From NCBI GenBank assembly GCA_965248285.1, contig CBDFJJ010000007.1, forward strand, positions 109,209 through 173,208: DNA of 64,000 nt, in the 5' to 3' direction. The stretch's first letter is position 1; the number at the start of each line of letters is the position of its first letter. This DNA comes from Gemmatimonadales bacterium. Lineage in GTDB: Bacteria; Gemmatimonadota; Gemmatimonadetes; Gemmatimonadales; GWC2-71-9. The translations under genes and the position numbers were made by a program. Positions 74 through 21,580 of this stretch are shown here, piece after piece. The notes beneath the pieces are model-generated. The model worked only from the letters and a program-made list of their open reading frames with translations, searched no databases and had not been told where the DNA came from.

Positions 74-988
74 TTAACCGACACGTACCTGGAACGTGAC
101 GGTGCCACTGTCACCACCTTGGATTGTGCCGATGCGGAAAACGACCCGGTTGCCGCCGACGTCGAAGACCCCCTCGTCGTCGCCGGCTGCGTCGGTTAGC
201 GACGTGCCGTTCCACCGCAAGGTGCCGGGAACGTACGACGTACCAATCGGAATGGGATCTTTGATCTCGAAATTGGTCGCCGTGTTCGTACCGCTGGCGC
301 TGTAGGTGATCGTGTACGTCAGGATGTCGCCGATCGTCGCACTGGTGCGGTCGACCAGCTTGTTCAGGCTCACCACGATCCCGACATCGCGAATCTCCAG
401 CACATCGAGCAGCCCGTCGGACTCGGATGCGTCGAACTCACTGGTGACGACGACGCTGATCGTATCGATCGTGCCCCGGACCGTTGCCAATCCGGGGACG
501 TCGATCACTACGAGGAGTTCGGCGGTGGCGCCCATCGCCAACATGATGGGACCGGTCACTCGGGGATCGCCCGCGTCCAGCGCGCCATCCGCATTCACGT
601 CGCGGTGCACCCGAACCGGCCATCCCATCCGCGACGTCGCGACGACCGTCGTGCTGTCGGTCCCATTGCCCATGTTGGTGAGCGTGTGATTGTATACCAC
701 GGTCGTCGCGGGGTCACTCACGGCGGAGCGCGGTGGCTCGAGGTCCGTGCCCGCCACCTGCGCGACGACCATGGCGAGCGTATCGGAATACGCCGTAAAA
801 ATCAGACCGTTGGGCGCCTCGTAGCTTGCCTCCGCAAACGAGTTGATTTGCGTCCCCGCCGGCGTCTGCGCCCACACAACAGGGGCGAAGAGAGCCAGCA
901 CGGGGAAGAAGCAGATGGCCCGGCCAATCTGGTGGCCGAATCCGGGCCTCTGTCCTGCCGTACCGTGCAACACCCCAAACAACCGCAT
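74..988 (-). CDS. Secreted DUF11 (conserved repeat domain) protein, P1
   Basis: ORF 74..1003 trimmed to ATG 988: AGGAGA SD lies 6 nt upstream, and 1003 is a TTG inside that SD. Signal peptide ..FFPVLALFAPVVWAQT. C-terminal module LNKLVDRTSATIGDILTYTITY..IKDPIPIGTSYVPGT..GTVTFQVRV fits the DUF11 pattern (family knowledge, no search run). Confidence 0.75.
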   Translation of the reverse strand: MRLFGVLHGTAGQRPGFGHQIGRAICFFPVLALFAPVVWAQTPAGTQINSFAEASYEAPNGLIFTAYSDTLAMVVAQVAGTDLEPPRSAVSDPATTVVYNHTLTNMGNGTDSTTVVATSRMGWPVRVHRDVNADGALDAGDPRVTGPIMLAMGATAELLVVIDVPGLATVRGTIDTISVVVTSEFDASESDGLLDVLEIRDVGIVVSLNKLVDRTSATIGDILTYTITYSASGTNTATNFEIKDPIPIGTSYVPGTLRWNGTSLTDAAGDDEGVFDVGGNRVVFRIGTIQGGDSGTVTFQVRVG

Positions 989-1041
989 TGTTGTTCTCCT
1001 CAACGTCGAATGATTCCGTACTCGATTCCGTGCCTCTTAAA

Positions 1042-1058
1042 GGCACGATGCGTGCCAC
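1042..1058 (-). promoter_or_regulatory. sigma-54 type -24/-12 promoter A (drives P1)
   Basis: Minus strand reads GTGGCACGCATCGTGCC. TGGCACG is at -24 and GTGC at -12, with exact GG-N10-GC spacing. It lies about 55 nt upstream of ATG 988. Confidence 0.6.
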
Positions 1059-1082
1059 AGAGGACCCCACGGTGTCACATGT

Positions 1083-1090
1083 AAGTTGTT
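1083..1090 (-). promoter_or_regulatory. Conserved AAGTYRTT box A between upstream motif and promoter
   Basis: Plus strand AAGTTGTT, 25 nt beyond the -24 hexamer. The same octamer occupies the equivalent position at promoters B, C and D. Confidence 0.4.
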
Positions 1091-1148
1091 GTTGGAATTA
1101 GACTTGTGGAGTTGTATCGCAAGGTGGATTTGTTGGCCGAGCCATCAC

Positions 1149-1176
1149 GTTACTGAATGGTAACTAACCACGTAAC
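1149..1176. promoter_or_regulatory. 28-bp tripartite upstream motif A (candidate enhancer/UAS)
   Basis: Plus strand GTTAC-TGAAT-GGTAAC-TAACCAC-GTAAC, 91 nt upstream of the -24 element of promoter A. Confidence 0.6.
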
Positions 1177-1377
1177 AGATACCGTTTGGTGTCGCTGCGG
1201 TAACCGCGGTGCTTTGTGGGGCGACAGCGTCTCTGGGGCTCAAGCCCTCCACGAGTCGTGAATCGGGTCGACTAATCGAATACTCGCGGTAGACCCCGGC
1301 TTGCGCCGGCGTCCCATCCGCTCATACGTCGGGCGAATGGGACGGCGGCGGTGACTCATGCTAACCCACACGGATCG

Positions 1378-2628
1378 CTAGTTAATGGTCACTTCGATCC
1401 AGAAGTAGACCGAGCTGCCTGCGGCCAGCGAGGGTAGCGTTGCATCTACGTGCTCGGGCGGACCGTTGAGCTTGGTTATCGTCCACCCGCTTGCGTCATC
1501 GCCGTGGGTCACATAGCTGACCTCGCTCGGGAGATCGTCGTCCACGTCAATGCTGCTGGCGGCTGCCGTACCCGATGCGTTGCTGACGGTGACCTTGTAC
1601 CAGATCGACTGACCCGGCAGCACGTCGCCGCTCACAGGGGTCGTCAATCCGGCGTCCGTAAAGGCCTCTTTGGTGATCGTCACGCTGGGACGGATCACGG
1701 TGAGATCCGCGAAGCCGTCGTCGAACGTCGCCGGAGTCGTCACCGACCTGCCGCGTAAGTAAACGGTGTCTTGGGTTCCGGCGGCTACGTTGAGCACCGA
1801 GTAGACGACGACGATCGTCGTCGATGCGCCCGCCGCCAGATTGATGCGAGTGCTGTCTCCCGCCACGGCGTTGACCGACACGATTGCGATGTCGCTCGCG
1901 TCCTCAAACGACGCCAGAAGGTCGAAATCCTCCGGGCCGTTACCGTTGTTCTGCACGGTAAACTGGAACGTGTAGTCCGTGCCGTTGCTCGGCAGGTGCT
2001 GCAGGTTCTGTCCACCGTCCGGCGTCACGGTCACGGCGAACGTTTCGCTGGCGTTGATATCGTAGTCGCCTGCATCCGACTCTCCGCCATCGCGAACGGA
2101 CGTAGCCGTCAACTGGTAGTTGGCGCTCAGGCCACCCTTGCTAGAGGGTACGTCGTATGTCACCGTGATGATCGTTGACGCGCCCGCCGTGAGCTGGTAG
2201 GTCGAAAGAGCGGTGTTCAGAAGTGCGAGGGTGGCGTAGTTCCCCGCATTAAAGTTGTAGTTGGTGACGGAGATAACCGTGGGATCACCCGTGATCGACT
2301 CGGCGACCTGCACCGTATCGACGCCGTTACCGACGTTCTGAACGGTCAACGCCATCGTGCCACCAGTGCTTGGGGACGCTGGACTCTGCGATCCGCCGTC
2401 TGGCGTGAATGACAGACCGGCCTGGAAGCCCACCGTGATCGCCACGGAGCCGTTCACCGGCGTGTACGTGTTGCCGTTGGCGTCAGTCCACGACACCGTC
2501 GCGGTGTTGGTGATGACGGTGCCTTCCGCCGTTTGGGCCCGTGCTGCCGTGACGGCGACGGCCATGATGATGCCGCTCAACGCCACGGTTCGAGCCAAAG
2601 CTTTCAAGTGCAACATGCGTTTCTCCAT
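1378..2628 (-). CDS. Secreted multi-module protein with C-terminal DUF11-like module, P2
   Basis: Signal peptide MLHLKALARTVALSGIIMAVAVTAARAQT. Internal modules: ..FTPDGG..LTVQNVGNG.. and ..TVTPDGGQNLQHLPSNGTDYTFQFTVQNNGNG... C-terminal module: ITKEAF..GQSIWYKVTVSNASG..DLPSEVSYV... Start is 2628 or ATG 2616 (GGAG SD). It lies only 22 nt downstream of P3, so the two are probably co-transcribed. Confidence 0.7.
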   Translation of the reverse strand: MEKRMLHLKALARTVALSGIIMAVAVTAARAQTAEGTVITNTATVSWTDANGNTYTPVNGSVAITVGFQAGLSFTPDGGSQSPASPSTGGTMALTVQNVGNGVDTVQVAESITGDPTVISVTNYNFNAGNYATLALLNTALSTYQLTAGASTIITVTYDVPSSKGGLSANYQLTATSVRDGGESDAGDYDINASETFAVTVTPDGGQNLQHLPSNGTDYTFQFTVQNNGNGPEDFDLLASFEDASDIAIVSVNAVAGDSTRINLAAGASTTIVVVYSVLNVAAGTQDTVYLRGRSVTTPATFDDGFADLTVIRPSVTITKEAFTDAGLTTPVSGDVLPGQSIWYKVTVSNASGTAAASSIDVDDDLPSEVSYVTHGDDASGWTITKLNGPPEHVDATLPSLAAGSSVYFWIEVTIN

Positions 2629-2650
2629 TCCTTAAGAAAGGCGCGCTCTG

Positions 2651-3211
2651 TTAACGCCTCGACGCCCTGGGCTCTTTGCCAGGCTCTTGTGATGTGGCGT
2701 TCGCCACCAGCTTCGCTTCGAATTCTGCGGTGACCTGCACGCCGGGCTGCACCCAATCCTGGACGAGCCAGCGTATGTGGGTGTACCGCTCCGGCGGCGC
2801 CGGCCGCCTGATCGAACGGCCGTCAACCAGCACATCGACCAGCGGCTGTGTCGAATAGGTCAAACCACCGTCGATTGAGTACTCGATGACGACGTCGTCG
2901 CGGTCGGACAGAGCCGAGCCATCCACATAGGTCAGACCGGAGGGGATCGGGTCCTTCAACTCGATTCCGCGGACGGGTGCGTCGATGATGTTCGTGAACA
3001 CCAGCCGGTACAGCACCACGTCGCCGGCGAACAATGCTTGGGCGTCACCACCGCGCTCGGCGTGTCCGCGATGCATGGCGTCGCCCGCCATGAGATTCTC
3101 AGCCGTGATCACCAGCGCCTTGCGACCCTCGGCGTCCTGTGCGGCCGCCGGCGTGCTCCAAGACGCAGCGACCATAGCCGCCAATGCCAATACCTCTCGC
3201 CAGTGCTTCAT
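2651..3211 (-). CDS. Secreted DUF11 protein, P3
   Basis: ORF 2651..3301 trimmed to ATG 3211 (AGGAGA SD 7 nt upstream); the 3301 start would overlap promoter B. Signal peptide MKHWREVLALAAMVAASWSTPAAAQD. DUF11-like core: VVLYRLVFTNIIDAPVRGIELKDPIPSGLTYVDGS..IEYSIDGG. Confidence 0.7.
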   Translation of the reverse strand: MKHWREVLALAAMVAASWSTPAAAQDAEGRKALVITAENLMAGDAMHRGHAERGGDAQALFAGDVVLYRLVFTNIIDAPVRGIELKDPIPSGLTYVDGSALSDRDDVVIEYSIDGGLTYSTQPLVDVLVDGRSIRRPAPPERYTHIRWLVQDWVQPGVQVTAEFEAKLVANATSQEPGKEPRASRR

Positions 3212-3296
3212 CGCTCGATCTCCTGTTCTCTGGGTCCGGCTGGCGACGGTATTCGCCGCGTCGACAGCCTTTTGCTGTTCATGCGGGGGTGTAAAG

Positions 3297-3312
3297 AGCA
3301 TGCGGCATGCCG
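3297..3312 (-). promoter_or_regulatory. sigma-54 type -24/-12 promoter B (drives P3-P2)
   Basis: Minus strand reads CGGCATGCCGCATGCT. GG and GC are at the exact N10 spacing and the -12 region is ATGCT. It lies about 85 nt upstream of ATG 3211. Confidence 0.45.
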
Positions 3313-3341
3313 CGGGGTCACCGCGCGGTACGAGATCACAT

Positions 3342-3349
3342 AAGTTGTT
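3342..3349 (-). promoter_or_regulatory. Conserved AAGTYRTT box B
   Basis: Plus strand AAGTTGTT, 29 nt beyond the -24 hexamer of promoter B. Confidence 0.4.
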
Positions 3350-3409
3350 TCTTGACAGGTATTTACGGTGTCAGAACCGACCGGTTGTCACGAATTCGGC
3401 TGCTGCTGC

Positions 3410-3437
3410 GTTACCGAGAAGTAACAATATCGGTAAC
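3410..3437. promoter_or_regulatory. 28-bp tripartite upstream motif B
   Basis: Plus strand GTTAC-CGAGA-AGTAAC-AATATCG-GTAAC, 97 nt upstream of the -24 element of promoter B. Confidence 0.6.
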
Positions 3438-3612
3438 GGAATCCGTAGCGGAGGAGGGGTTCGGGGCGGCCGGACGTGGAGGCATCAACGAGGTCCGTGG
3501 CGCGGTGTTATGTCACTATTCACCACACTCGCTGCGAGCAATGCTCAGCTTGCGGGGCCTCCAGGATAGGGTGATCCGTCCGGTGCCGTTCGGGCCTGGA
3601 CCCCGAGCGCCG

Positions 3613-5178
3613 TCAGGATATCCTGCACACGAACTCCACTGTGCCGGTGTTGTCGGGTGCCGAGAAACCCAGGACATTCAGTAGGGTCCAGCGGATTCGG
3701 TCGACGCAGCCGTCGTAGTTGGCCGGGGCGCCACACCCGGTGGAGATCGGCACGTAGGTCCAGCTGCTACCGCCATCGTTGGAGTATTCGACCGTTACGC
3801 CGATTCCGACCGGCAAGTTGTTGACGACGCTCCCAACCTTGAACTCCACCTCAGCCGGCAACGAGTCCACGATCACCACACCGGCAGCGTCCTGGCTGCC
3901 GTCGTTGGTGACGGTGACCGTGTAGGTGAGGTCGGTGCCCGGGAGTTGCGTTCCGTTGGGATTGACCGACTTGGAGGTGGTCATACTCGGCTTAACCAGC
4001 TCCACGAACGCCGAGCCCGAGTCGGTGGAGTTGCTGTTGCTCACCGCCCGGCCCATGAGATACAGCGAGTCCAGGGTTCCGAGGGCGGCGTCCGAGACCT
4101 GGAACCACACGAAGGCGCTGTCACTTGAACTGGCGGGTATGTCGGCGATTCGCGCGCTGTCCGGGTCGGCTCCCCGGGTCACGTTGGGTCCGGTGACCGA
4201 ATCCGTCGTGAGGATGGTTGCGGAGTAGCCGAACAGATCGAAGGACTGGACGGCACCCGACGAGTTCGTGACCGTGAACTTGTACGACGTCGCCGTTCCG
4301 TTGCTGGGAAGAAGCCCCAACGTGTCCGCTCCATCGGGCGTGACGGTAAAGGCCACGGGCTGCACGGGTGCGATGGCAATCGTAACCGTTCTCGACTGCT
4401 CCGTATCCGTCAGCGAGAACGTCGACGTGCCACTCGAGCCCGCCGTCGCCTGGACCACGTAGCCGGCGCCGCCGGACACCGTGCCGCTGGCCGGGTCGCT
4501 CTCGTCCATGGTGATAGCCGTGTGTCCCGAGAGCCCCGGACTGTCTATTGTCACGTCGTCCTCGTCGAAGGCCCCCATGCGCACGATGAGCGTGTTGTCC
4601 ACCGTCGTCGTGACGGCGGGGCTGGTCGGCGTGGAGTTATTTCCGTCTTCGGCGGCGGCGACCACATGGATCGGTGCGGCGGCATCGTGGCCGGTAAAAC
4701 GCATCATCCAGGCATACACCTGCTGGGTGCCCGACCACGTGAACTGATGGGTCGCTGACTCCGACGCGCCGGCGAGCTTCCACCAGACGGCCAGCGTCAC
4801 TTCGTTGTTGTAGGCGCCCACGTCGATGAGCGTCCATCCCTCACCCCCAGGCGGGCTGATCGACGCAGCCGTGTTCCCGTCGGTCGCCACCGCGACGACC
4901 AGGAGGTCCCCATTGCTCGTGCCACACGGGATGGGAACGTCGATGGATAGCACGTTGCTGCTCGCCTTCGCCTCCGCGCCGCCCTCGTAGCGCACCGGGG
5001 CACCGCCCGGCGTCCCGAAGCACCCCTGGGCGAGAGCCGGTGGCGCGAAGATCCCGCCCGCCACGAGGAGAGCGACGCCCAAGAACAGCGTTCTCGGGTT
5101 GAGGAGAGAGAGCGCCAGGCCACGGCTCCCGGCGGTCCTAGGGACCGACGAGCTCAACCCGCTCCCCGAAATCAGCAT
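3613..5178 (-). CDS. Large secreted protein with C-terminal DUF11 module, P4
   Basis: ORF 3613..5280 begins with TTG; ATG 5178 is the more likely start (GGAGAGGAAAG upstream). Hydrophobic signal ..LFLGVALLVAGGIFAPPALAQG. Central module FTVTPDGADTLGLLPSNGTATSYKFTVTNSSG is shared with P2. C-terminal module: GTDLTYTVTVTNDGSQDAAGVVIVDSLPAEVEF..VEYSNDGGSSW. Confidence 0.7.
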   Translation of the reverse strand: MLISGSGLSSSVPRTAGSRGLALSLLNPRTLFLGVALLVAGGIFAPPALAQGCFGTPGGAPVRYEGGAEAKASSNVLSIDVPIPCGTSNGDLLVVAVATDGNTAASISPPGGEGWTLIDVGAYNNEVTLAVWWKLAGASESATHQFTWSGTQQVYAWMMRFTGHDAAAPIHVVAAAEDGNNSTPTSPAVTTTVDNTLIVRMGAFDEDDVTIDSPGLSGHTAITMDESDPASGTVSGGAGYVVQATAGSSGTSTFSLTDTEQSRTVTIAIAPVQPVAFTVTPDGADTLGLLPSNGTATSYKFTVTNSSGAVQSFDLFGYSATILTTDSVTGPNVTRGADPDSARIADIPASSSDSAFVWFQVSDAALGTLDSLYLMGRAVSNSNSTDSGSAFVELVKPSMTTSKSVNPNGTQLPGTDLTYTVTVTNDGSQDAAGVVIVDSLPAEVEFKVGSVVNNLPVGIGVTVEYSNDGGSSWTYVPISTGCGAPANYDGCVDRIRWTLLNVLGFSAPDNTGTVEFVCRIS

Positions 5179-5276
5179 TGACAGCTTTCCTCTCCGAAGG
5201 CGAGGACCACAACGGACCGCGCAACCAGGTGTGCCCCCGGACTCCGTCCAACAATCAGATCGCTGGCTCTCATGGC

Positions 5277-5486
5277 TCAACGAACACGCCGCGCGTCGGG
5301 TTCAAGGTCGTTCTCCCTGCACTTGTCCTGTGGCGCCACACGACCGCGGGGGGGAAGCCGATCGTTCAAATGCGGCTCCCGCCACGCGAACGGCTGGCCG
5401 CATACGGGACAGACAACCAGACTGCCCATCACGCCGCCGAACGGGTATTGGCGACTGCGACAGCATTTTGGACACGTGAGTCTCAG
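5277..5486 (-). CDS. Candidate 69-aa zinc-ribbon protein, absent from the ORF track (non-canonical start)
   Basis: My own translation of the minus strand gives (L/M)RLTCPKCCRSRQYPFGGVMGSLVVCPVCGQPFAWREPHLNDRLPPRGRVAPQDKCRENDLEPDARRVR*, with two CxxC pairs 18 residues apart. GGAGG SD at 5493-5497 lies 6 nt before CTG 5486, and no ATG/GTG/TTG precedes the first CxxC. Its stop TGA (5277-5279) overlaps TTG 5280 of the P4 ORF (GTTGA). It sits in the otherwise empty ~340-nt leader downstream of promoter C. Confidence 0.4.
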   Translation of the reverse strand: MRLTCPKCCRSRQYPFGGVMGSLVVCPVCGQPFAWREPHLNDRLPPRGRVAPQDKCRENDLEPDARRVR

Positions 5487-5526
5487 CCTTCACCTCCCGA
5501 TGCGAGAATCTTGCGCCACATCAGCA

Positions 5527-5542
5527 AGCATGGCTCATGCCA
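5527..5542 (-). promoter_or_regulatory. sigma-54 type -24/-12 promoter C (drives zinc-ribbon ORF and P4)
   Basis: Minus strand reads TGGCATGAGCCATGCT: TGGCAT at -24, ATGC at -12, exact GG-N10-GC spacing. Confidence 0.5.
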
Positions 5543-5570
5543 GCCCAGACGCAGCTTCTAAAAAAGCGTG

Positions 5571-5578
5571 AAGTTGTT
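5571..5578 (-). promoter_or_regulatory. Conserved AAGTYRTT box C
   Basis: Plus strand AAGTTGTT, 28 nt beyond the -24 hexamer of promoter C. Confidence 0.4.
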
Positions 5579-5637
5579 GCTGTAAAATGACTTACACGTC
5601 TAGACGGGGAGGGGGTTGCGGCTAAGCATACGGTGCT

Positions 5638-5665
5638 GTTACGAAATGGTAACGCACCATGTAAC
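5638..5665. promoter_or_regulatory. 28-bp tripartite upstream motif C
   Basis: Plus strand GTTAC-GAAAT-GGTAAC-GCACCAT-GTAAC, 95 nt upstream of the -24 element of promoter C. Confidence 0.6.
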
Positions 5666-5728
5666 GGAGTGCGGGGTTAGAGGCGAGGTCTTGCGGGGTT
5701 CAAGGCCGCCTCCATCACCAAGGCGGTC

Positions 5729-7201
5729 TCACAGCAGACCGTGCTTCTTGCGCTTCTCCCACAAATTCTTGCGCGAGATACCAAGGATCTCAGCAGCTTT
5801 CTCCACAGCCCCGTCGCACGCATCCATAGTGCGGCCGATATACTTCTTTTCGGCCCCGGCCAGCGTCAGGCCCTTAGGAATCTCGAAAGCCGCGTCGGAC
5901 TCTGTGTTCGCCGTGGTAACGTCGAGACGTCCGAACTCCGGCAGGTCGGTGGTCTGGAGCACGGCGCCCGCGGCGAAGATCATGGCCCATTCCATGACGT
6001 TTCTGAGTTCCCGCACGTTGCCGGGCCAGTTCCACTCCTGCAGCACCTGGGCGGCCTCCGGGCTGATCGACCGTACCTCCTTGCGGAACTCCCGGTTGAA
6101 CACCCCCAGGAAATGGTCGGCCAGGAGCGCGATGTCCTCCTTGACGTCCCGGAGAGATGGTAGGCAATGGGTGGCGACGCTGATCCGATAGTAGAGGTCG
6201 TTGCGAAACCGCCCGGCGCGGACCGCCTCATCCAAGTCGCGGTTCGTGGCAGTGATCAGCCGGAGGGCAACCTCGATCTCCTCCGTCCCACCGATCCGGC
6301 GAAACTGGCGGGACTCGAAGAAGTTGAGGAGCTTGGCCTGAAGCTCGGGGGAGAGATCTCCGATCTCGTCGAGAAACAGGGTCCCGCCGTCTGCCACTTC
6401 AACCAGGCCCCGCTTTGACTCGCGGGCGTCCGTGAACGCTCCCTTCTGGTGGCCGAACAGCTCCGCCTCGATAAGCTGGGGGGGCAGCGCCGAGCAGTTG
6501 ATTTCGACGAACCGCCCCTCCGAATCTGGGCTCGAGTAGTGGATCGCGCGAGCCACCAGGTTCTTCCCCGTTCCGCTCTCGCCAAGCAGCAGCACCGTCG
6601 GCCGTGGGATGTCGGCGATCTGGCGGACGAACTGGCGGACCTCCTCAATTCTCGGGTGCTCACCGAGAATCGCACGAACGGAGAATTCCTCCCGCCGCAC
6701 CTGCCGGAGGGTCGTAGCTTCCTCACGCAGCGGTCGCTCGTCGAGAGCGCGCTTGAGTAGTGCGTTGAACTCGTCGATGTTAACTGGCTTGGTCAGGTAG
6801 TCGGTTGCGCCGGCTTTCAACGCCTCAATTGCTGTCGCCATTTCCGCGTGGGCAGTGACGACGAAAATTGGCAGATGCGGGTCGCGCCCACGAAGCCGCC
6901 GCGTCACGTCGATGCCGCTGAGACCGGGCATCACGAGGTCGGTGACGATCGCATCGGGCAAGTCTTCCGCGCACCGCGCGAAGAGTTTTTCGGGATCGTC
7001 GAAGACTTCCCCGCGCAAGCGAGCCGCCGGATCGAGGTTGGCGGCTAGTAGCTTTGCAAAATCGAGGTCGTCATCCAGGATATAGATTCTCGGTATCACA
7101 AGTCGAATAATTGCGTCGAAGAGGTTGAGCCACAAGCCGCGCACTCCCGCCTCGAGACAGGGCGCGAATGGAGCCACGTTCATCGTCCTCGTGATCGACA
7201 C
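5729..7201 (-). CDS. sigma-54-dependent response regulator (NtrC-type enhancer-binding protein: REC + AAA+ + Fis-type HTH)
   Basis: REC domain: [21 protein letters not shown]+ domain: Walker [16 protein letters not shown], sigma-54 contact loop KGAFTDA (a GAFTGA variant), Walker [12 protein letters not shown], and [14 protein letters not shown]-terminal HTH: [21 protein letters not shown]. Confidence 0.9.
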
Positions 7202-7322
7202 TACTGGCGTCGGTGGCGAAGGTTACGCGGTCGTCTAACTGAGGCTAAGCCCAGACGTGGTTGCGATCGCAAACACCTCCCCGACGACGCCGACGCTATC
7301 GCCGGACCGAATTGGTCCGCGA

Positions 7323-7928
7323 TCAAGGGGTCATATTGGATCGCAAGTTTGGGACCAATAGGAGAGGCATATCTGTCATAGGAACGATCGTGTCCGCCGG
7401 CTGGAACGGCACCGGGATCGGTGCCGGTGAAGGCACTTTGCTGTTGGCGTTTCCGATCGCCGAACCGGCTCCGGTTGAGACCAACACGAACGCCGCGAAA
7501 GCGCCCGCTCGAATCATCCGTCGCTTGAAGTTCCGCGAAAGACGAGCCTCGAGGGCGCGGGTTTTCGTTCGCAGGACCGCTTTCTCCGCCCCCCTTTCGA
7601 TGGCCACCGCCAGGTGATCCAGGGCAACCGGCTTTGCTAGAAAGTTCTCCGCGCCAACGCGCATCGCTCGTACGGCGTCCTCGATTTCAGCCTGCCCGGT
7701 GAGCATGATCACCACCGCACGCTTCTCGCGCAGTCGATCCAACACCTCCATCCCTGACATGCCAGGCATCTTGAGGTCCAGCACCGTGACCTGAGGAGAA
7801 ACACGTTTCCAGGTTGCAATGCCTTCGGAACCCGACGCCGCCGTGTATACCGCGTGCCCAAGCTGCCGGAGGTGTGTGCTCAGGAGGTTCAGAAGATCGA
7901 CATCGTCGTCAATGATGAGAATACGCAT
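7323..7928 (-). CDS. Receiver (REC) domain protein with a C-terminal hydrophobic helix and no output domain
   Basis: ORF 7323..7961 trimmed to ATG 7928 (GGAG SD 8 nt upstream). REC: MRILIIDDDVDLL..VLDLKMPGMSG..LAKP. This is followed by ..RRMIRAGAFAAFVLVSTGAGSAIG.. (predicted TM) and a Pro-rich tail. Confidence 0.75.
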   Translation of the reverse strand: MRILIIDDDVDLLNLLSTHLRQLGHAVYTAASGSEGIATWKRVSPQVTVLDLKMPGMSGMEVLDRLREKRAVVIMLTGQAEIEDAVRAMRVGAENFLAKPVALDHLAVAIERGAEKAVLRTKTRALEARLSRNFKRRMIRAGAFAAFVLVSTGAGSAIGNANSKVPSPAPIPVPFQPADTIVPMTDMPLLLVPNLRSNMTP

Positions 7929-7966
7929 GGGTTTCGCTCCAAGTGGCAGCTTCCACCTCACTCAAC

Positions 7967-7982
7967 AGCAGGAGACGTGCCA
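7967..7982 (-). promoter_or_regulatory. sigma-54 type -24/-12 promoter D (drives the REC-TM / EBP operon)
   Basis: Minus strand reads TGGCACGTCTCCTGCT: TGGCACG at -24, CTGC at -12, exact spacing. It lies about 40 nt upstream of ATG 7928. Confidence 0.6.
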
Positions 7983-8010
7983 CTCGGGGACGGGCGCTGG
8001 CCGACCCTGT

Positions 8011-8018
8011 AAGTCATT
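8011..8018 (-). promoter_or_regulatory. Conserved AAGTYRTT box D (variant AAGTCATT)
   Basis: 28 nt beyond the -24 hexamer of promoter D. Two further AAGTTG copies follow at 8023-8034. Confidence 0.3.
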
Positions 8019-8079
8019 ATTCAAGTTGAAGTTGCGGTGTTTCAGCGAGGTGGCTGCGCCTGGTGACCGGGAAACTATG

Positions 8080-8107
8080 GTTACTAGACGGGAACCACCA
8101 GCGTCAC
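8080..8107. promoter_or_regulatory. 28-bp tripartite upstream motif D1 (degenerate)
   Basis: Plus strand GTTAC-TAGAC-GGGAAC-CACCAGC-GTCAC, 97 nt from the -24 element of promoter D. Confidence 0.5.
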
Positions 8108-8108
8108 T

Positions 8109-8136
8109 ATTACAGTATGGTAACAGTCCATGCTAC
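8109..8136. promoter_or_regulatory. 28-bp tripartite upstream motif D2
   Basis: Plus strand ATTAC-AGTAT-GGTAAC-AGTCCAT-GCTAC. It is tandem to D1 (29-bp period) and lies 114 nt from the -24 element of promoter E. Confidence 0.55.
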
Positions 8137-8250
8137 CCGCCCTGGAGGTGGTCTAGCCGTCCTGAAGGACCGCAAACCGGAACTGGCCGGTCTCTTCAAC
8201 CGGGACAGGACTTGCAGGTGTCAAGATCGTTGGTCGAGGAGGTAGACTTT

Positions 8251-8266
8251 TGGTATCACGGATGCA
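8251..8266 (+). promoter_or_regulatory. Candidate sigma-54 type promoter E (drives the REC-Hpt-HK operon)
   Basis: Plus strand TGGTATCACGGATGCA: GG-N10-GC spacing is exact and the -12 ATGC matches promoters B and C, but the -24 hexamer TGGTAT is weaker. It lies about 70 nt upstream of ATG 8336. Confidence 0.35.
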
Positions 8267-8335: not shown

Positions 8336-8719
8336 ATGTCAACACCCTTCCGGATAGTCATAATCGACGATGACGCTGATCTTCGGGAGCTGATCAAAGT
8401 GACGTTGGAGTTTACGGCTGGTTGGGAGGTTGTAACGGCTGCCGACGGCCCCGAGGGGATTGCCGCCGTACGGCGGTCGACGCCCGACGCCGTCGTGGTA
8501 GACCTTATGATGCCCGGCATGGACGGCTATGAGGTGTGCCGTCAGCTTCGTCAGGATCCTGAAACGGCAGAGATTCACCTTGTCCTGCTGACCGCCCGCA
8601 GGCAGCTTGACCAGGCGCAATTCGAGTCCGCGGGTTCCGTGGGGGTCATCTTCAAACCATTCGAACTGGACGACCTCGCACCCCGCATTCTTGAACTTTG
8701 TGGATCCCGGGATGGTTGA
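8336..8719 (+). CDS. Single-domain response regulator (CheY-like receiver)
   Basis: FRIVIIDDDADLRELI..AVVVDLMMPGMDGYEV..VLLTAR..IFKPF: the canonical REC acidic pocket, phospho-Asp and Lys. Confidence 0.9.
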   Translation: MSTPFRIVIIDDDADLRELIKVTLEFTAGWEVVTAADGPEGIAAVRRSTPDAVVVDLMMPGMDGYEVCRQLRQDPETAEIHLVLLTARRQLDQAQFESAGSVGVIFKPFELDDLAPRILELCGSRDG

Positions 8720-9086
8720 CGATCAGGACCGGGGCGCTGCCGGTCACGATGCCCAGCTGGCCGAGATTCACCGCCAGTTTTCCCAGGGGTTGCCCGCTCG
8801 ACTAGAAATCCTGCGATCCGCCTTAGTCGAACTCACAGAAGGCTACCAACAGGCCATGGCCGAAAGTTTCTATCGCGCGGCGCACTCACTCAAGGGAACT
8901 GCGGCGTCCTTCGGTACCCCCGATCTGGCAGCGCACGCTGCACTCCTCGCTGATCTGGGAGACGGGTGGGTGCGGCGCCACGCTGCCCCGCACGACGAAA
9001 TCTCGTCTGCGTCCGCCGAGCTTCAGCGACTCGAAGCGACGATGGAGGCATACACAGGAAGAGTGGAGGGCGGCGGAGCAGAATGA
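8712..9086 (+). CDS. Hpt (histidine phosphotransfer) domain protein
   Basis: ORF 8607..9086 trimmed to ATG 8712, which overlaps the upstream stop. Hpt signature: FYRAAHSLKGTAASFG. Confidence 0.8.
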   Translation: MVDDQDRGAAGHDAQLAEIHRQFSQGLPARLEILRSALVELTEGYQQAMAESFYRAAHSLKGTAASFGTPDLAAHAALLADLGDGWVRRHAAPHDEISSASAELQRLEATMEAYTGRVEGGGAE

Positions 9087-10789
9087 CGCCGCAACGCGAC
9101 TCGCGGACCCTCTCAGACACCGATCGGCTCGAAGTTGTCGGTGAGCTCGCTGCACTGATCAACACAAAGTTCGATCTGAACGAGATTTTCGAGGCGGCCA
9201 TCCTGAAGCTGCGGCGCGTGATGGAATTCCGCCGTGCCAGTGTGCTGCTCCTCTCCGAAGACCGACACCACTATTACCTGCACACTTTATACGACGCGGA
9301 CAGCGGCGGGTTTGTCCAGTTGTTACAGGAGTTCAGCCTCGACGAGGGTCGCCCCGGAAAGGTGATCCGCACCGGGCAAGCGATGCTGGTGAACGAGTTC
9401 GAGGGCACTGAGGGAATCCGCAGCAAGGGTGAGCAACAAGTGTCAGCGCTAATTGTCCCACTTCGAGTGGAAGACGATGTCATAGGAACGCTCAACTTTG
9501 GAGTTGGCAGCACTAAGATTTACCGGGAGGAGGACCTGGAACTCGCGATCCTGCTGGCGCGACCGATCGAAACGTCACTGCACTACTCCAGGCTTTTCGC
9601 TACGATCCAAAGCCAGCGGGAACAACTGGCGATTGAAAATGCGCAAGTTCAGTCCGAGCGAACCCGCCTAGAAGCCCTCATCGAAGCAAGCGACGCTGCA
9701 ATTCTTATGGTAAGCGACGACATTGTCGCTCACGCAAACGGCACCATGGCTCGCCTGCTCGGCGTTCCCCTCGAAACCCTCGTGGGGGCGCCGATGGAAC
9801 ACATCAATCAGGCGGTTGCCCAGTCGCTGGCTGACCCCGAGGCGCTTGCCGTACAGACCGCCGCGCTCAATCGGGCAAGCCCGCCGCTGCGGGACCGAGT
9901 TGAATTCGTCTTTCCACGTCGGGCCATTTGCCAGCGCACGGTGGCTACGGTGCCCGGGGTGGGGGGCGACGTGCTGGGCTTTTTGCTGCTTTACCGCGAC
10001 GTCACGCGCGAAGCCGACGCGGAAGCCGCTAAGGACGAGTTCCTTGCCACAGTCAGCCACGAACTTCGCACCCCGCTCACCTCGATAAAGACTTCCCTCG
10101 GCCTGCTCGGGAAAGGCGCCGCAGGGACAGTGACCCAGCAGATGCAGAAGTTTCTCGATATCGCACTCCGCAATCTCCAGCGACTCATTCGACTGGTGGA
10201 CGACCTGCTCGACCTCTCCAGGGTCGCAAACGGGCGTTCCAAACCCACCCTCGTGCCGGTGTCCATTAAGGAAGCTACCGACCGCGCGGTGGAGGCTGTC
10301 CGCGGCTCTATTCAGGAGCGGGACGTCAAGCTGGAGCGCGACCGCCCCGCAAAGTCGATGCTCGTTAAGGGCGATGCCGATGGCTTGGTGCAGGTCGTCG
10401 TCAATCTCCTGTCCAACGCCGTCAAGTTCTCGCCCCGTGGGGGGCGCGTCACACTGGGCTGGCGGAAAGACGGCGACTTCGCCGTCCTCGAGATCTCGGA
10501 CGAAGGACCTGGATTGCCGGCCGACATGCTCGAAACGATCTTCGACAAGTTCCTGCAACTCGACGGGTCGTCCACTCGCCGTCACGAAGGAGTCGGGTTG
10601 GGACTTCACATCAGTCAGATCATAGTCGAAGATTTCGGGGGCAGGATCTGGGCGGAGAGCGAGGACGGGCAGGGATCTCGGTTCTTCGTCCGACTGGCGC
10701 TGGCCGACGCAGCTCCCAAACCCAATGAGATCGAAGGTCAGATCAAAACCGTCCAGGCCGAGGAGGGTCATCGTGGAGAAGAATCCTGA
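9083..10789 (+). CDS. GAF/PAS sensor histidine kinase
   Basis: ORF 8966..10789 trimmed to ATG 9083 (ATGA overlap with the Hpt stop). H-box FLATVSHELRTPLTSI, N-box NLLSNAVKFSP, G1 DEGPGL, G2 GVGLGLHIS. N-terminal GAF-like and PAS-like regions. No C-terminal receiver. Confidence 0.9.
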   Translation: MTPQRDSRTLSDTDRLEVVGELAALINTKFDLNEIFEAAILKLRRVMEFRRASVLLLSEDRHHYYLHTLYDADSGGFVQLLQEFSLDEGRPGKVIRTGQAMLVNEFEGTEGIRSKGEQQVSALIVPLRVEDDVIGTLNFGVGSTKIYREEDLELAILLARPIETSLHYSRLFATIQSQREQLAIENAQVQSERTRLEALIEASDAAILMVSDDIVAHANGTMARLLGVPLETLVGAPMEHINQAVAQSLADPEALAVQTAALNRASPPLRDRVEFVFPRRAICQRTVATVPGVGGDVLGFLLLYRDVTREADAEAAKDEFLATVSHELRTPLTSIKTSLGLLGKGAAGTVTQQMQKFLDIALRNLQRLIRLVDDLLDLSRVANGRSKPTLVPVSIKEATDRAVEAVRGSIQERDVKLERDRPAKSMLVKGDADGLVQVVVNLLSNAVKFSPRGGRVTLGWRKDGDFAVLEISDEGPGLPADMLETIFDKFLQLDGSSTRRHEGVGLGLHISQIIVEDFGGRIWAESEDGQGSRFFVRLALADAAPKPNEIEGQIKTVQAEEGHRGEES

Positions 10790-12485: not shown

Positions 12486-12573
12486 GATCAGCCTTAGTGG
12501 GCAGTAAGCAGTGGGTAGTAGGGTGTTCAAGTGTGCGCTAACGACTTGGGACTAATCCTTCTCGAAGACCAGC

Positions 12574-13973
12574 GAGTTATTTTCGAAAGTTGTGGATTGG
12601 AGGAATGAGAAAGGCGGCGTATCCTTTCGTGTAGTCAGTTGAAACGTACACGAGATCCGGTTGTGACGACCGGAGAAAGGACACGCCACCGATGTTGAGG
12701 ATAATAGAGAATGCGTCTGAGAGCAAAGGGAACGGACTGTTCGCAGACCTGGACGAGCTTGCCAGAGAGGGAGCTCGGCGGATGCTGGTGAGTGCGTTGG
12801 ACGCGGAAGTGACCGAGTATGTCGAGCGATATCGGATTGAGCGAGACGGAGAGGGCCGCGCCCTGGTGGTGCGCAATGGCAAAGCCCGTCCCCGCAAGGT
12901 GACGCTGGGTGCTGGTACGGTCACGGTGACCGCGCCACGGGTGCATGACCGTCGTATGCGGGCGCAGTTCACGAGCAAGATTTTGCCTCCCTATATGCGG
13001 CGGTCGCCGAAGGTGGCGGAGGTCTTGCCGGTGTTGTATCTGCGCGGTCTGTCGACGGGAGATTTTCGCGAGGCGTTGCCGATCTTGTTGGGTGAGGACG
13101 CATCAGGCTTGTCCCCGACGACGATCACGCGATTGACGGCGGCGTGGGAGGGGGAATACCAGGCGTTTCGCCAGCGTGATCTGCGTGATCGGGAGTATGT
13201 GTACGTCTGGGTCGACGGGATCCACTTCAACATTCGCCTCGAGGCCGACCGGCTGTGTACGCTGGTGATGCTGGGCGCCCGGGCGGATGGGACGAAAGAG
13301 CTGATCGCGGTGGAGGACGGCTATCGGGAGAGCACGGAGAGCTGGTTGGCGGTGTTGCGCGATCTGAAGCGTCGGGGGATGCGGGCCCCGGTGCTGGCGA
13401 TTGGGGATGGCGCGTTGGGGTTCTGGGCAGCGGTGCGGGAGGTGTGGCCGGCGACGCGGCAGCAGCGCGACTGGGTGCACCGGATGGCCAACGTGTTGGA
13501 CAAGCTTCCGAAACGTTTGCAGCCGGCGGCGAAGCGGGTGTTGCGCGAGATGATGTGTGCGGAGGCCGAGGCGCTGGTCGAGCGTTTCGCCACCGCGTAT
13601 GCGGCCAAGTATCCCAAGGCGGTCGCCTCGCTCACGCGGGACCAGGAGCACCTGTACAGCCATTTTGATTTTCCGGCCGAGCATTGGAAACATATCCGTT
13701 CGACGAACGTGATCGAGTCTGCCTTCGCGACGGTCCGGTTACGACAGCGCGTGACCAAGGGAGCGGGCTCGCGGAGCAAAGGGCTGACGATGGCGTTCAA
13801 GCTGTTGGAGATGGCGCAGCAACGTTGGCGGAAACTCAACGCTCCAGAACTTCTCCCCCTGGTGTTGGCAGGAGAACAATTCAAAGATGGTATGCAGGAA
13901 ACTGACAAAGAGAACACGGATCGGAAGGTCGCCGCTTGATCACTCACCGATCCACAACATTTGACAATACCTC
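12574..13973 (+). mobile_element. IS256-family insertion sequence, copy 1 (1400 bp)
   Basis: Imperfect 27-bp terminal inverted repeats: GAGTTATTTTCGAAAGTTGTGGATTGG and the reverse complement of CCGATCCACAACATTTGACAATACCTC. Perfect 9-bp target duplication AAGACCAGC at 12565-12573 and 13974-13982. Confidence 0.9.
12692..13939 (+). CDS. IS256-family (Mutator-type) transposase, 415 aa
   Basis: WVDGIHFNIRLE..ALGFWAAVREVWPATRQQRDWVHRMANVLDKLP..STNVIESAF fits the Mutator/IS256 family pattern. It is 4 aa shorter than copies 2 and 3. Confidence 0.9.
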   Translation: MLRIIENASESKGNGLFADLDELAREGARRMLVSALDAEVTEYVERYRIERDGEGRALVVRNGKARPRKVTLGAGTVTVTAPRVHDRRMRAQFTSKILPPYMRRSPKVAEVLPVLYLRGLSTGDFREALPILLGEDASGLSPTTITRLTAAWEGEYQAFRQRDLRDREYVYVWVDGIHFNIRLEADRLCTLVMLGARADGTKELIAVEDGYRESTESWLAVLRDLKRRGMRAPVLAIGDGALGFWAAVREVWPATRQQRDWVHRMANVLDKLPKRLQPAAKRVLREMMCAEAEALVERFATAYAAKYPKAVASLTRDQEHLYSHFDFPAEHWKHIRSTNVIESAFATVRLRQRVTKGAGSRSKGLTMAFKLLEMAQQRWRKLNAPELLPLVLAGEQFKDGMQETDKENTDRKVAA

Positions 13974-16514: not shown

Positions 16515-17144
16515 CTACGCTTTTGTTTTCCTCCTCGTGGCACGCTTAGTGCCTTTCTTTGCGACCGGCTTTTTTGTGGCTTTTCTCGTGGCCTTCTTTG
16601 CGGTGGTCTTACCGGCGCCTGCGGCGGTACGCCGGGCCTGAGTGGACTTTCGCTGGCCAGGCGCGCCGCGAGTTTTCTTCACCGTGGATGCAGAGGGCGT
16701 CTCGGGCGGACTGAAACGCAACAGCATTTCCTGGCAACGCTTGTACTCATCGAGCTTCGCAATCGCAGTGTTCTTCAACTTCTCCATCGTAACCGCAACC
16801 GTATATAGGCTCGGATCGAGTTTGAGTATTTCCGAGCGTACCTTCCCAAGATCGGCGGTGATCTTCTCCGATCGGGGACGGGACTGCGACATTTGATAGA
16901 GACGACCGATGAGGCGGCGCAGCGCGTGAATGATGATATGGTCTTGCGAGGACAGCGTCGAAAGAACCCGGGCGCGCCGGTCGACCCCGCGTCGGCGATC
17001 GACCTCCACGGCTACAGCCTCCTGGCGCCGCTGTGCCAGCCGCCGCTCGCTCACGGCCCGCCGTTCTTCCGCCGTCCGTCGGTCCGCGATTTTCCGTCTG
17101 TCGCCCTTGCGGCGTGTTGCGGCGGGGGTTTCTTCCATCTGCAC
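16515..17144 (-). CDS. Highly basic hypothetical protein (N-terminal DRR repeats, C-terminal Lys/Ala-rich histone H1-like tail)
   Basis: N-terminus: GDRRKIADRRTAEERRAVSERRLAQRRQ..DRRRGVDRRARV. C-terminus: TTAKKATRKATKKPVAKKGTKRATRRKTKA. Confidence 0.5.
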   Translation of the reverse strand: MQMEETPAATRRKGDRRKIADRRTAEERRAVSERRLAQRRQEAVAVEVDRRRGVDRRARVLSTLSSQDHIIIHALRRLIGRLYQMSQSRPRSEKITADLGKVRSEILKLDPSLYTVAVTMEKLKNTAIAKLDEYKRCQEMLLRFSPPETPSASTVKKTRGAPGQRKSTQARRTAAGAGKTTAKKATRKATKKPVAKKGTKRATRRKTKA

Positions 17145-18395: not shown

Positions 18396-18574
18396 CTAGT
18401 ACTTGCTCTCGCAAAGGTACAGACTGTTGTCATCGGGGTCGCCGAAAAAGGCCAGCCTTATCGACCCATTCGCATCGCCCTGGATCGGGCCGTCGAATGT
18501 GACGCCCCGGCTCTTCAAAATACGCACGACTTCGTCGATCGACTCCGTCACATTGAAACCGACGTTGATGGATC
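18396..18574 (-). pseudogene. VOC/glyoxalase-family gene, C-terminal fragment truncated by IS5-family copy A
   Basis: GSINVGFNVTESIDEVVRILKSRGVTFDGPIQGDANGSIRLAFFGDPDDNSLYLCE. The upstream 40 codons of ORF 18396..18695 are read from the IS end. Confidence 0.65.
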
Positions 18575-18704
18575 CTAGCAGGTTGCGGAAAAATTGATGG
18601 TGAGCCGCGTTTGTCCGGGTAACACGACGGTGTACCAGCGTGCGGTCCCCTATTACCGCCCCCGCGGTGCGGTCGGCGTGACGAATGCGGCCCACACTGC
18701 CCCA

Positions 18705-19442
18705 TCAGGGGCTGCCTCCGGCCAGGGTCAGGGTGCGTATCCGCATCAGATTGTAGACCGCGGCCGTGAACGTAAACACCCACCCGACCCGCGGGGTCCC
18801 GCGATGTCGGAGTTTGCGTAACAACCCAATCGTCTTGCCCCACCCGTAGATCTCTTCCACTTTTTTGCGCTGCCGTTGACTGATCGCATAGCTGGGATGG
18901 CGCGTCGTCCGGCCATCCACCGCGCTCCGCAACCGCGTGCGGTGCACGTTCGGCGTGACGTGGGGCGTCCAGCCCAACGCCCGCAGCGTGTCGACAAACC
19001 CGCACCGATCATAACCCTTGTCCGCCCCCAACGTCCGACGCCGGGCCGTCGGCGGTAAGCTCCCCACCATCGCCAGCGCACTCGCACACTCCGCCTCGTA
19101 GCCGGGCTGCGTCACGTCGGTCGCCACCACGAGCCCGTGCCGATTATCCATCAACACACTCGCCAAGTACGCCAATTGCGCGCCTTGCCCCCCACTCTTC
19201 CGCGTCAACCGCGCCTCCGGGTCCGTCCGCGACGCATGCGTCGCATTCGTCCGTTTCTCCTGGCGAAACGTCACGCTCGGATTCCCCGGATCATCGTCCG
19301 TTGGCGGGCGGGTGCCGGCCTTCGGCTGAAAACTCTTCTGACTCGCCCACGCGTCCAGCAAGGTCCCGTCGACGGTGAAATGCTCATTCGACAACAACGC
19401 CCGCCGCTCCGCCTCCTGTAACACTTCGGCCAGAAACGCATC
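18705..19442 (-). pseudogene. IS5-family transposase, C-terminal part (copy A)
   Basis: ..LAEVLQEAERRALLSNEHFTVDGT..LGADKGYD.. is identical to residues 128-366 of the intact 366-aa copies. Confidence 0.9.
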
Positions 19443-19476
19443 GAGGTATTGTCAAATGTTGTGGATCGGTGAGTGA

Positions 19477-20736
19477 TCAAGCGGCGACCTTCCGATCCGT
19501 GTTCTCTTTGTCAGTTTCCTGCATACCATCTTTGAATTGTTCTCCTGCCAACACCAGGGGGAGAAGTTCTGGAGCGTTGAGTTTCCGCCAACGTTGCTGC
19601 GCCATCTCCAACAGCTTGAACGCCATCGTCAGCCCTTTGCTCCGCGAGCCCGCTCCCTTGGTCACGCGCTGTCGTAACCGGACCGTCGCGAAGGCAGACT
19701 CGATCACGTTCGTCGAACGGATATGTTTCCAATGCTCGGCCGGAAAATCAAAATGGCTGTACAGGTGCTCCTGGTCCCGCGTGAGCGAGGCGACCGCCTT
19801 GGGATACTTGGCCGCATACGCGGTGGCGAAACGCTCGACCAGCGCCTCGGCCTCCGCACGCGACTCCGCATACATCATCTCGCGCAACACCCGCTTCGCC
19901 GCCGGCTGCAAACGTTTCGGAAGCTTGTCCAACACGTTGGCCATCCGGTGCACCCAGTCGCGCTGCTGCCGCGTCGCCGGCCACACCTCCCGCACCGCTG
20001 CCCAGAACCCCAACGCGCCATCCCCAATCGCCAGCACCGGGGCCCGCATCCCCCGACGCTTCAGATCGCGCAACACCGCCAACCAGCTCTCCGTGCTCTC
20101 CCGATAGCCGTCCTCCACCGCGATCAGCTCTTTCGTCCCATCCGCCCGGGCGCCCAGCATCACCAGCGTACACAGCCGGTCGGCCTCGAGGCGAATGTTG
20201 AAGTGGATCCCGTCGACCCAGACGTACACATACTCCCGATCACGCAGATCACGCTGGCGAAACGCCTGGTATTCCCCCTCCCACGCCGCCGTCAATCGCG
20301 TGATCGTCGTCGGGGACAAGCCTGATGCGTCCTCACCCAACAAGATCGGCAACGCCTCGCGAAAATCTCCCGTCGACAGACCGCGCAGATACAACACCGG
20401 CAAGACCTCCGCCACCTTCGGCGACCGCCGCATATAGGGAGGCAAAATCTTGCTCGTGAACTGCGCCCGCATACGACGGTCATGCACCCGTGGCGCGGTC
20501 ACCGTGACCGTACCAGCACCCAGCGTCACCTTGCGGGGACGGGCTTTGCCATTGCGCACCACCAGGGCGCGGCCCTCTCCGTCTCGCTCAATCCGATATC
20601 GCTCGACATACTCGGTCACTTCCGCGTCCAACGCACTCACCAGCATCCGCCGAGCTCCCTCTCTGGCAAGCTCGTCCAGGTCTGCGAACAGTCCGTTCCC
20701 TTTGCTCTCAGACGCATTCTCTATTATCCTCAACAT
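19477..20736 (-). CDS. IS256-family transposase, 419 aa
   Basis: Translation is identical to copy 3. Confidence 0.9.
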   Translation of the reverse strand: MLRIIENASESKGNGLFADLDELAREGARRMLVSALDAEVTEYVERYRIERDGEGRALVVRNGKARPRKVTLGAGTVTVTAPRVHDRRMRAQFTSKILPPYMRRSPKVAEVLPVLYLRGLSTGDFREALPILLGEDASGLSPTTITRLTAAWEGEYQAFRQRDLRDREYVYVWVDGIHFNIRLEADRLCTLVMLGARADGTKELIAVEDGYRESTESWLAVLRDLKRRGMRAPVLAIGDGALGFWAAVREVWPATRQQRDWVHRMANVLDKLPKRLQPAAKRVLREMMYAESRAEAEALVERFATAYAAKYPKAVASLTRDQEHLYSHFDFPAEHWKHIRSTNVIESAFATVRLRQRVTKGAGSRSKGLTMAFKLLEMAQQRWRKLNAPELLPLVLAGEQFKDGMQETDKENTDRKVAA

Positions 20737-20854
20737 CGGTGGCGTGTCCTTTCTCCGGTCGTCACAACCGGATCTCGTGTACGTTTCAACTGACTACACG
20801 AAAGGATACGCCGCCTTTCTCATTCCTCCAATCCACAACTTTCGAAAATAACTC

Positions 20855-21377: not shown

Positions 21378-21580
21378 CGTGGCACTCCCATCGAGGTCCC
21401 TCTACGATAAGAACTTCCGGCTCGCGATGCTATCGTCCATTACCCGACTTTTTCCGCAACCTGCTAGAGGTCTTATCGGTGAAGACTAAATGGAGAAGAT
21501 ATTTAGGGGAGAGGTTTGGGCCTCCCCGGTTTGGTGGACACCGAGTTAGTAGACGTCCATCATACTGTGGGAGGTTTGTT

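Follow-up and report, generated by a model that had tools for sequence, protein, structure and literature searches.

How are the genes of a small secreted-protein cluster in a Gemmatimonadales bacterium switched on, and by which regulator? The question is raised by a 64-kb stretch of contig CBDFJJ010000007.1 (hereafter the window, 64,000 nucleotides in full), for which an initial annotation had listed five copies of a 28-bp tripartite motif near sigma-54-type promoters, and had proposed them as enhancers (upstream activating sequences, UAS) for the bacterial enhancer-binding protein (EBP) encoded at 5729-7201. The analysis makes it likely that these elements are the enhancers of a small sigma-54 regulon, with the neighboring EBP as their predicted binder. 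This reading of the motif as a UAS is supported by its position, by the GG-N10-GC promoters that accompany it, by its conservation at 26 sites, and by its absence from 74 non-orthologous EBP loci.

A phased motif upstream of four promoters

Both strands of the window were searched with the pattern GTTACNNNNNGGTAACNNNNNNNGTAAC (GTTAC-N5-GGTAAC-N7-GTAAC), allowing up to 3 mismatches. Five matches were found, all of them on the plus strand, at 1149-1176, 3410-3437, 5638-5665, 8080-8107, and 8109-8136, with 0, 1, 0, 2, and 3 mismatches, respectively, and so the coordinates and the single orientation described previously were exactly reproduced. In dinucleotide-preserving shuffles, the mean was 0.13 matches, and 0 of 100 contained as many as five. 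The other 56 kb of the window yielded no further copy at the same threshold. The single hexamers GTTACC and GGTAAC were present 12 times each, against about 13 expected in the window, i.e., at background frequency, and because the lone hexamers are not enriched, it is the phased triple that constitutes the signal.

Since every gene from 74 to 7961 is encoded on the minus strand, the motif is best read on that strand, where the refined consensus is G(T/A)TACC-N6-GTTACC-N4-GGTAAC, a dyad of 16 bp with one additional direct half-site on its promoter-distal side. The centers of the two dyad half-sites are 10 bp apart, and the direct half-site is centered 12 bp further from the promoter, a phasing of about one helical turn; in the genomes of two relatives, the dyad spacer is 3 or 5. 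With GTTACC as the half-site and N4 as the dyad spacer, the motif is indeed unlike the NtrC site TGCACC-N5-GGTGCA, as had been noted. The copies, all on the minus strand when read in the direction of the genes, are as follows:

1149-1176, minus strand, UAS-A: GTTACG-tggtta-GTTACC-attc-AGTAAC, 91 nt upstream of promoter A
1178-1204, minus strand, possible second tandem copy: GTTACC-gcagc-GACACC-aaac-GGTATC, 15 of 18 half-site positions, first spacer 5 and not 6
3410-3437, minus strand, UAS-B: GTTACC-gatatt-GTTACT-tctc-GGTAAC, 97 nt upstream of promoter B
5638-5665, minus strand, UAS-C: GTTACA-tggtgc-GTTACC-attt-CGTAAC, 64 nt past the EBP stop codon and 95 nt upstream of promoter C
8080-8107, minus strand, UAS-D1, degenerate: GTGACG-ctggtg-GTTCCC-gtct-AGTAAC, 97 nt upstream of promoter D
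8109-8136, minus strand, UAS-D2, degenerate tandem copy: GTAGCA-tggact-GTTACC-atac-TGTAAT

The sixth, weaker copy at 1178-1204 abuts UAS-A on its upstream side and was missing from the initial annotation. Because of it, promoter A may carry a tandem pair, like promoter D.

At all four promoters, the motif was found upstream of a GG-N10-GC element, with an AT-rich box in between:

1042-1057, minus strand, sigma-54-type promoter A: TGGCACGCATCGTGCC, with the element TGGCACGCATCGTGC at 1043-1057, predicted to drive the DUF11 gene at 74-988
1080-1095, minus strand, AT-rich box A between UAS and promoter: CCAACAACAACTTACA, with a CAA-N4-TTA core, putatively an IHF site
3297-3312, minus strand, sigma-54-type promoter B: CGGCATGCCGCATGCT, with the element CGGCATGCCGCATGC at 3298-3312, predicted to drive 2651-3211 and 1378-2628
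3339-3356, minus strand, AT-rich box B: GTCAAGAAACAACTTATG
5527-5542, minus strand, sigma-54-type promoter C: TGGCATGAGCCATGCT, with the element TGGCATGAGCCATGC at 5528-5542
5568-5597, minus strand, AT-rich box C: GTAAGTCATTTTACAGCAACAACTTCAC
7967-7982, minus strand, sigma-54-type promoter D: TGGCACGTCTCCTGCT, with the element TGGCACGTCTCCTGC at 7968-7982
8008-8035, minus strand, AT-rich box D: CTTGAATAATGACTTACAGG

Measured on the minus strand up to the base where the -24 element begins, the gaps from the motif were 91, 97, 95, and 97 nt for promoters A to D, the same values as those given before. The enhancers accordingly lie at about -120 to -150 relative to the inferred transcription starts, which are expected near 1031, 3286, 5516, and 7956 on the minus strand. 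The distance had been called fixed and common to every promoter. It is constrained, with 91-97 nt here and 71-100 nt in relatives, but not strictly fixed, and "every" applies to the four sigma-54-type promoters of this cluster. When the four upstream regions were aligned, they showed 56% identity overall, and the conserved islands corresponded to the three half-sites, the AT-rich box, and the promoter, GGCA-N6-TGC. The AT-rich island reads AACAACTTA / TAAGTCATT, has a CAA-N4-TTA core similar to an IHF site, and occurs in either orientation.

Other sigma-54-like elements were observed in the window. Two of them, on the plus strand, GGGACAGGACTTGCA (8201-8215) and TGGTATCACGGATGCA (8251-8266), lie between the double UAS-D and the divergent REC-Hpt-kinase operon, and because of their location the tandem UAS-D might serve divergent promoters too. 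Another one, the palindromic TGGCACGCTTAGTGCC at 16538-16553, is close in sequence to promoter A and has no GTTACC motif nearby.

Conservation of the motif with the orthologous EBP

Next, the motif was sought in other genomes. The scan included one genome per species, and comprised six Gemmatimonadales metagenome-assembled genomes (MAGs; L001-L006) with an orthologous EBP and 74 non-orthologous EBP loci as controls. The EBP identity was 66-67% in the six MAGs and at most 44% in every other EBP found. With up to 2 mismatches, the pattern was present at 6/6 of the orthologous-EBP loci and at 0/74 of the other EBP loci. In all six, a copy was found directly 3' of the EBP stop codon and in the same orientation, so that the position of the UAS just after this codon is kept in all the orthologous loci. 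At a threshold of at least 15 of the 18 half-site positions, there were 0 matches in 1.1 Mb of control loci versus 24 in 208 kb of orthologous loci.

The cluster, i.e., the REC-Hpt-kinase operon, the EBP, the DUF11 secreted proteins, and the zinc-ribbon protein, was found at 13 related loci, which come from Gemmatimonadales genomes and from soil metagenomes. The conserved gene order is kinase, Hpt, and REC; then EBP, UAS, promoter, and DUF11; and then UAS, promoter, zinc-ribbon, and three DUF11 genes, with proteins that are only 40-67% identical across the compared genomes. The REC-EBP intergenic gap in the orthologous loci is about 50 nt, too short for a UAS plus a promoter.

From these data, a list of 26 sites across 14 loci (about ten distinct lineages) was compiled. 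All 26 had the same orientation toward the promoter, with the odd half-site always promoter-distal, and all had a GG[CT]A[CT]-N5-N[TCG]GC element 71-100 nt downstream, which is expected by chance in about 1.6% of 35-nt windows. An alignment of 13 sequences upstream of the zinc-ribbon gene showed conservation of the half-sites, a TAA...TTA box, GGCA-N6-TGC, an AAAGGAG ribosome-binding site, and the ATG, while everything else was scrambled, including the spacers inside the motif. The distances from dyad to promoter gave a helical periodicity with R = 0.44-0.48 at 11.5-12 bp; no claim of periodicity is made from these values, because the sites are orthologous and not independent.

In the metagenome scan, 11 exact matches on high-GC contigs were present among the matches listed, and 8 of these 11 were at the same position of the same cluster. 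Separately, about 105 of the 120 metagenome loci listed corresponded to an unrelated repeat of more than 200 bp on contigs with 35-45% GC from the Ga01539xx and Ga01573xx samples. This low-GC repeat (L081-L200, e.g., L087 at 3328-3355) contains GTTACAAGTAGTGTTACCACATTGTAAC, and its match to the pattern is accidental.

The cluster, its predicted regulator, and the rival explanations

The genes of the cluster and the operon that diverges from it are the following:

74-988, minus strand, DUF11-repeat secreted protein A, 304 aa from the ATG at 988
1378-2628, minus strand, DUF11-repeat secreted protein, 416 aa
2651-3211, minus strand, secreted protein with one DUF11/TIGR01451 repeat, 186 aa
3613-5178, minus strand, DUF11-repeat secreted protein, 521 aa
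5277-5486, minus strand, small zinc-ribbon protein (CPKC...CPVC), 69 residues, with an apparent CTG start aligned with the ATG of the orthologues
5729-7201, minus strand, NtrC-family response-regulator EBP (REC, AAA+ with a GAFTDA loop, HTH_8), the candidate binder
7323-7928, minus strand, stand-alone receiver protein, 201 aa, first gene behind promoter D, absent from this place in the orthologous loci
8336-10789, plus strand, divergent operon of REC (8336-8719), Hpt (about 8716-9086), and a GAF-PAS-HisKA-HATPase kinase (about 9083-10789), a conserved neighbor of the EBP

Operon A consists of the 304-aa DUF11 protein, operon B of the 186-aa and 416-aa DUF11-repeat proteins, operon C of the zinc-ribbon protein and the 521-aa DUF11 protein, and operon D of the stand-alone receiver gene followed, 120-220 nt later, by the EBP gene. 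Judged by eye, the DUF11 proteins have hydrophobic, signal-peptide-like N-termini throughout.

The initial annotation had named the EBP at 5729-7201 as the obvious candidate to bind the motif, and the choice holds well: it is the sole EBP, and thus the only sigma-54 activator, in the window, and its recognition helix is invariant among the motif-bearing genomes. The protein contains REC, Sigma54_activat (PF00158, 1.3e-63), AAA_lid_14, and HTH_8 (2.7e-10) domains, and by inspection, the receiver has the usual acidic, Thr, and Lys residues; its true start is probably at 7183 or 7099. The closest solved relatives are the Aquifex NtrC-family activators (NtrC1/NtrC4-type). It reached no NCBIfam equivalog cut-off (366 versus 558.6 bits for the NtrC equivalog) and is only generically AtoC/NtrC-like. 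The recognition helix of the helix-turn-helix (HTH) was identical in all the orthologues, and the linker preceding it was hypervariable; the other EBPs examined had different recognition helices, e.g., IDRRTLYRKL, LSFRSMRYKL, and IDRSTLYSKI. Moreover, this HTH_8 is the only recognized DNA-binding domain in the cluster. Co-occurrence with the motif and the invariant helix make strong circumstantial evidence for the EBP as the predicted binder, and fall short of proof.

Some further observations were made on this protein. The GAFTDA loop is encoded at 6440-6460 and was present in every orthologue where the loop was found. Membership of the PEP-CTERM/PrsR group was considered and rejected, with a score of 353 bits versus a cut-off of 502.6 and with target proteins that have no PEP-CTERM tails. 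When proteins were searched with the DNA-binding domain by itself, only short fragments came back, and several of these were C-terminal parts of EBP genes carrying a frameshift. At one of these loci (L201), the EBP appears as two open reading frames (ORFs), apparently frameshifted, with a near-identical recognition helix in a different gene context, and there GGTAAC-N14-GTTTACC-N4-GGTAAC (1700-1736) was found 102 nt upstream of TGGCAC-N5-TTGG (1603-1619), facing a Ser/Thr kinase gene, an arrangement that is only suggestive. L202, another locus from the fragment search, contained no such site, and the sequence of L203 was incomplete.

A working mechanism can be proposed, whose steps we infer from established sigma-54 biology. 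The adjacent kinase-REC-Hpt relay would phosphorylate the EBP and lead to assembly of the active AAA+ ring, and the C-terminal Fis-type HTH would bind the half-sites, with an HTH dimer occupying the 16-bp dyad and one more subunit at the distal half-site. The AT-rich, IHF-like site at about -55 to -75 would bend the DNA and aid looping, allowing the EBP to contact sigma-54 RNA polymerase at the GG-N10-GC promoter some 90-100 nt downstream, where ATP hydrolysis would open the sigma-54 closed complex. The predicted output is the switching on of three operons of secreted DUF11-repeat proteins plus the zinc-ribbon protein. In this lineage, the REC gene behind promoter D and probably the EBP gene itself would also be included, giving positive feedback if they are co-transcribed. 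Because the orthologous genomes lack the REC gene and promoter D, such a feedback loop would be lineage-specific.

Other explanations of the motif were weighed. It is improbable, in our judgment, that the elements are true regulatory sites for another binder, either an EBP or regulator encoded elsewhere or the zinc-ribbon protein, with the adjacent EBP binding some other sequence. The zinc-ribbon protein is a conserved member of the cluster with no assigned function, binding of the EBP is here a prediction, and the visible genome amounts to 64 kb, all of which would leave room for such a binder; however, the place of the motif relative to the inferred start is the classical EBP position, it co-occurs strictly with the orthologous EBP, whose recognition helix is invariant, the HTH_8 has no recognized counterpart in the cluster, and the 13-sequence alignment contained no other conserved dyad or repeat upstream of the promoters that could be enhancer-like. 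We regard as very unlikely an element acting at the RNA level, such as a terminator or a processing hairpin at the 3' end of the gene that comes before it. The invariant half-sites, with no compensatory changes, and the scrambled spacers favor recognition of base identity, as in protein binding, over a hairpin, and the third half-site lies outside any hairpin. Each copy does lie behind a gene of the same strand, a short hairpin can form from GTTACC-N4-GGTAAC, and copies B and C folded somewhat better than shuffles (z = -2.0 and -3.1), but copies A and D folded no better (z about -0.3), a terminator scan called no site at any copy, no U-tract follows them, and there was no Rfam match.

The least credible explanation is that the copies are leftovers of duplicated promoters, or a short dispersed repeat, devoid of sequence-specific function. 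Since the DUF11 genes are paralogous, their upstream regions could share ancestry, and the pattern is also fitted by the unrelated low-GC repeat found elsewhere. Nevertheless, conservation is restricted to the half-sites, the AT box, and the promoter, whereas flanks and spacers show no relationship, be it inside the window or between genomes, and this scrambling rules out that common ancestry or a repeat element is the cause. Further copies were found neither in the window nor in the 1.1 Mb of control loci; a common repeat away from sigma-54 promoters is not what was observed, as the 5 copies (plus the weak one) in the 64 kb are all at such promoters.

Several points weigh against the preferred reading, in which the elements are enhancers bound by the neighboring EBP. 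The protein has a GAFTDA loop in place of the canonical GAFTGA; this variant was present in 47 of the 90 EBPs fetched, whose selection was skewed by the search pattern, and was also common among the Desulfobacterales EBPs fetched. Three half-sites fit dimers in no simple way. Copies D1 and D2 are degenerate and would not reach significance by themselves, but they adjoin each other in register, with a 29-bp offset. Three of the exact high-GC matches, among the metagenome matches listed, were outside recognizable clusters, and these matches do not establish the size of the regulon beyond the cluster. The rpoN gene (RpoN box) and the IHF/HU genes were not found within the 64 kb plus flanks, a scope at which this result is uninformative.

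Relation to known enhancers, and further observations on the locus

The arrangement was then compared with described systems. With NtrC-family enhancers, e.g., that of glnAp2, it has in common dyad half-sites about one helical turn apart and some 100-150 bp upstream of a -24/-12 promoter, a cognate activator with REC, AAA+, and a Fis-type HTH encoded next door, an AT-rich IHF-like element in between, and tandem copies at some promoters (here A and D). It differs in sequence and geometry, because NtrC sites, TGCACC-N5-GGTGCA, span 17 bp, whereas here the GTTACC half-sites are separated by N4 and span 16 bp, and because NtrC enhancers have two full dyads, whereas here each unit has three half-sites with the odd one promoter-distal in 26 of 26 sites. 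The NorR enhancer contains three GT-N7-AC sites upstream of norV, each a complete small dyad, and the sensory domain of NorR is a GAF domain. The two systems share an odd number (three) of close sites, which may nucleate an EBP oligomer at a sigma-54 promoter, and differ in sequence, in the completeness of the NorR dyads, and in the sensory domain, which is REC here.

The closest described case is the CbrB enhancer of Pseudomonas putida, composed of the subsites F1 (TGTTAC), R1, and R2 (GTAACA) on one helix face, together with an IHF site and a sigma-N promoter (PMC6296734). Both enhancers have the GTTAC/GTAAC core and three subsites in mixed orientation on one helix face, and the IHF-like box found here is placed as the IHF site of CbrB is, between enhancer and sigma-54 promoter. 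In CbrB, the subsites are 20-25 bp apart from center to center (two turns), while the distances here are 12 and 10 bp (one turn), and the order is F1, R1, R2 as described, versus F-F-R toward the promoter in this cluster. CbrAB is reported to be exclusive to pseudomonads (PMC6296734). The partner of CbrB is CbrA, whereas here a GAF-PAS kinase would act via REC and Hpt in a Gemmatimonadota host, and this context argues against a CbrB orthologue.

That this is a mechanistically ordinary bacterial gene switch, with a compact three-half-site layout that is mildly unusual, is well supported by what the sequence comparisons indicate. Since the architecture is a textbook one, its worth lies in annotation and in the compact three-subsite variant, and not in a new principle. 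We propose only tentatively that a "one-and-a-half dimer" enhancer, with three half-sites in 28 bp, may nucleate the EBP ring in a way unlike the two-dyad NtrC enhancer, using the CbrB half-site at half the spacing, and that this may be the first defined Gemmatimonadota sigma-54 regulon; in the literature search, no description was found of this motif or of a Gemmatimonadota sigma-54/EBP enhancer or regulon. If true, the CbrB-like half-site would imply either an HTH recognition code shared across distant phyla or convergence, and the regulon would be a phosphorelay-controlled, lineage-wide cluster of DUF11 surface proteins. The locus offers a concrete and testable pair of cis-element and regulator for Gemmatimonadota, a refined position-specific motif usable for regulon annotation in Gemmatimonadales MAGs, and a putative tie between an uncharacterized, conserved DUF11 secreted-protein cluster and a two-component phosphorelay. 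It has been proposed that sigma-54 controls the bacterial exterior (PMC3162934), and the DUF11 cluster fits this view.

Some observations concern single genes of the cluster. The zinc-ribbon ORF (5277-5489, minus strand) contains no ATG, GTG, or TTG ahead of the first Cys, and the CTG at 5486-5484, 6 nt past a GGAGG, aligns with the ATG of all the orthologues (MVLRCP versus LRLTCP), which suggests either a CTG start or a mutation of the start codon. In the 521-aa DUF11 protein (3613-5178), the N-terminal half (residues from about 50 to 280) gave no Pfam or NCBIfam match, and it is conserved only in part among the orthologues, which vary in their N-terminal regions. The receiver-only protein (7323-7928) resembles the N-terminal part of an EBP (positions 6-158 of the AtoC model) and has a hydrophobic C-terminal tail. 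As all the orthologous loci lack this gene and promoter D, the two appear to have been inserted in this lineage or to be what is left of a duplicated EBP.

Lastly, the window contains two insertion-sequence-like repeat families, of about 1.4 kb and 1.3 kb, whose copies are 99-100% identical. The former is found at 12571-13973, 19443-20857, and 22899-24310, and the latter at 25644-26963, 58605-59924, and 18573-19442 plus 21006-21468. This last copy seems to be split, and a copy of the 1.4-kb family begins exactly at the break (19443).

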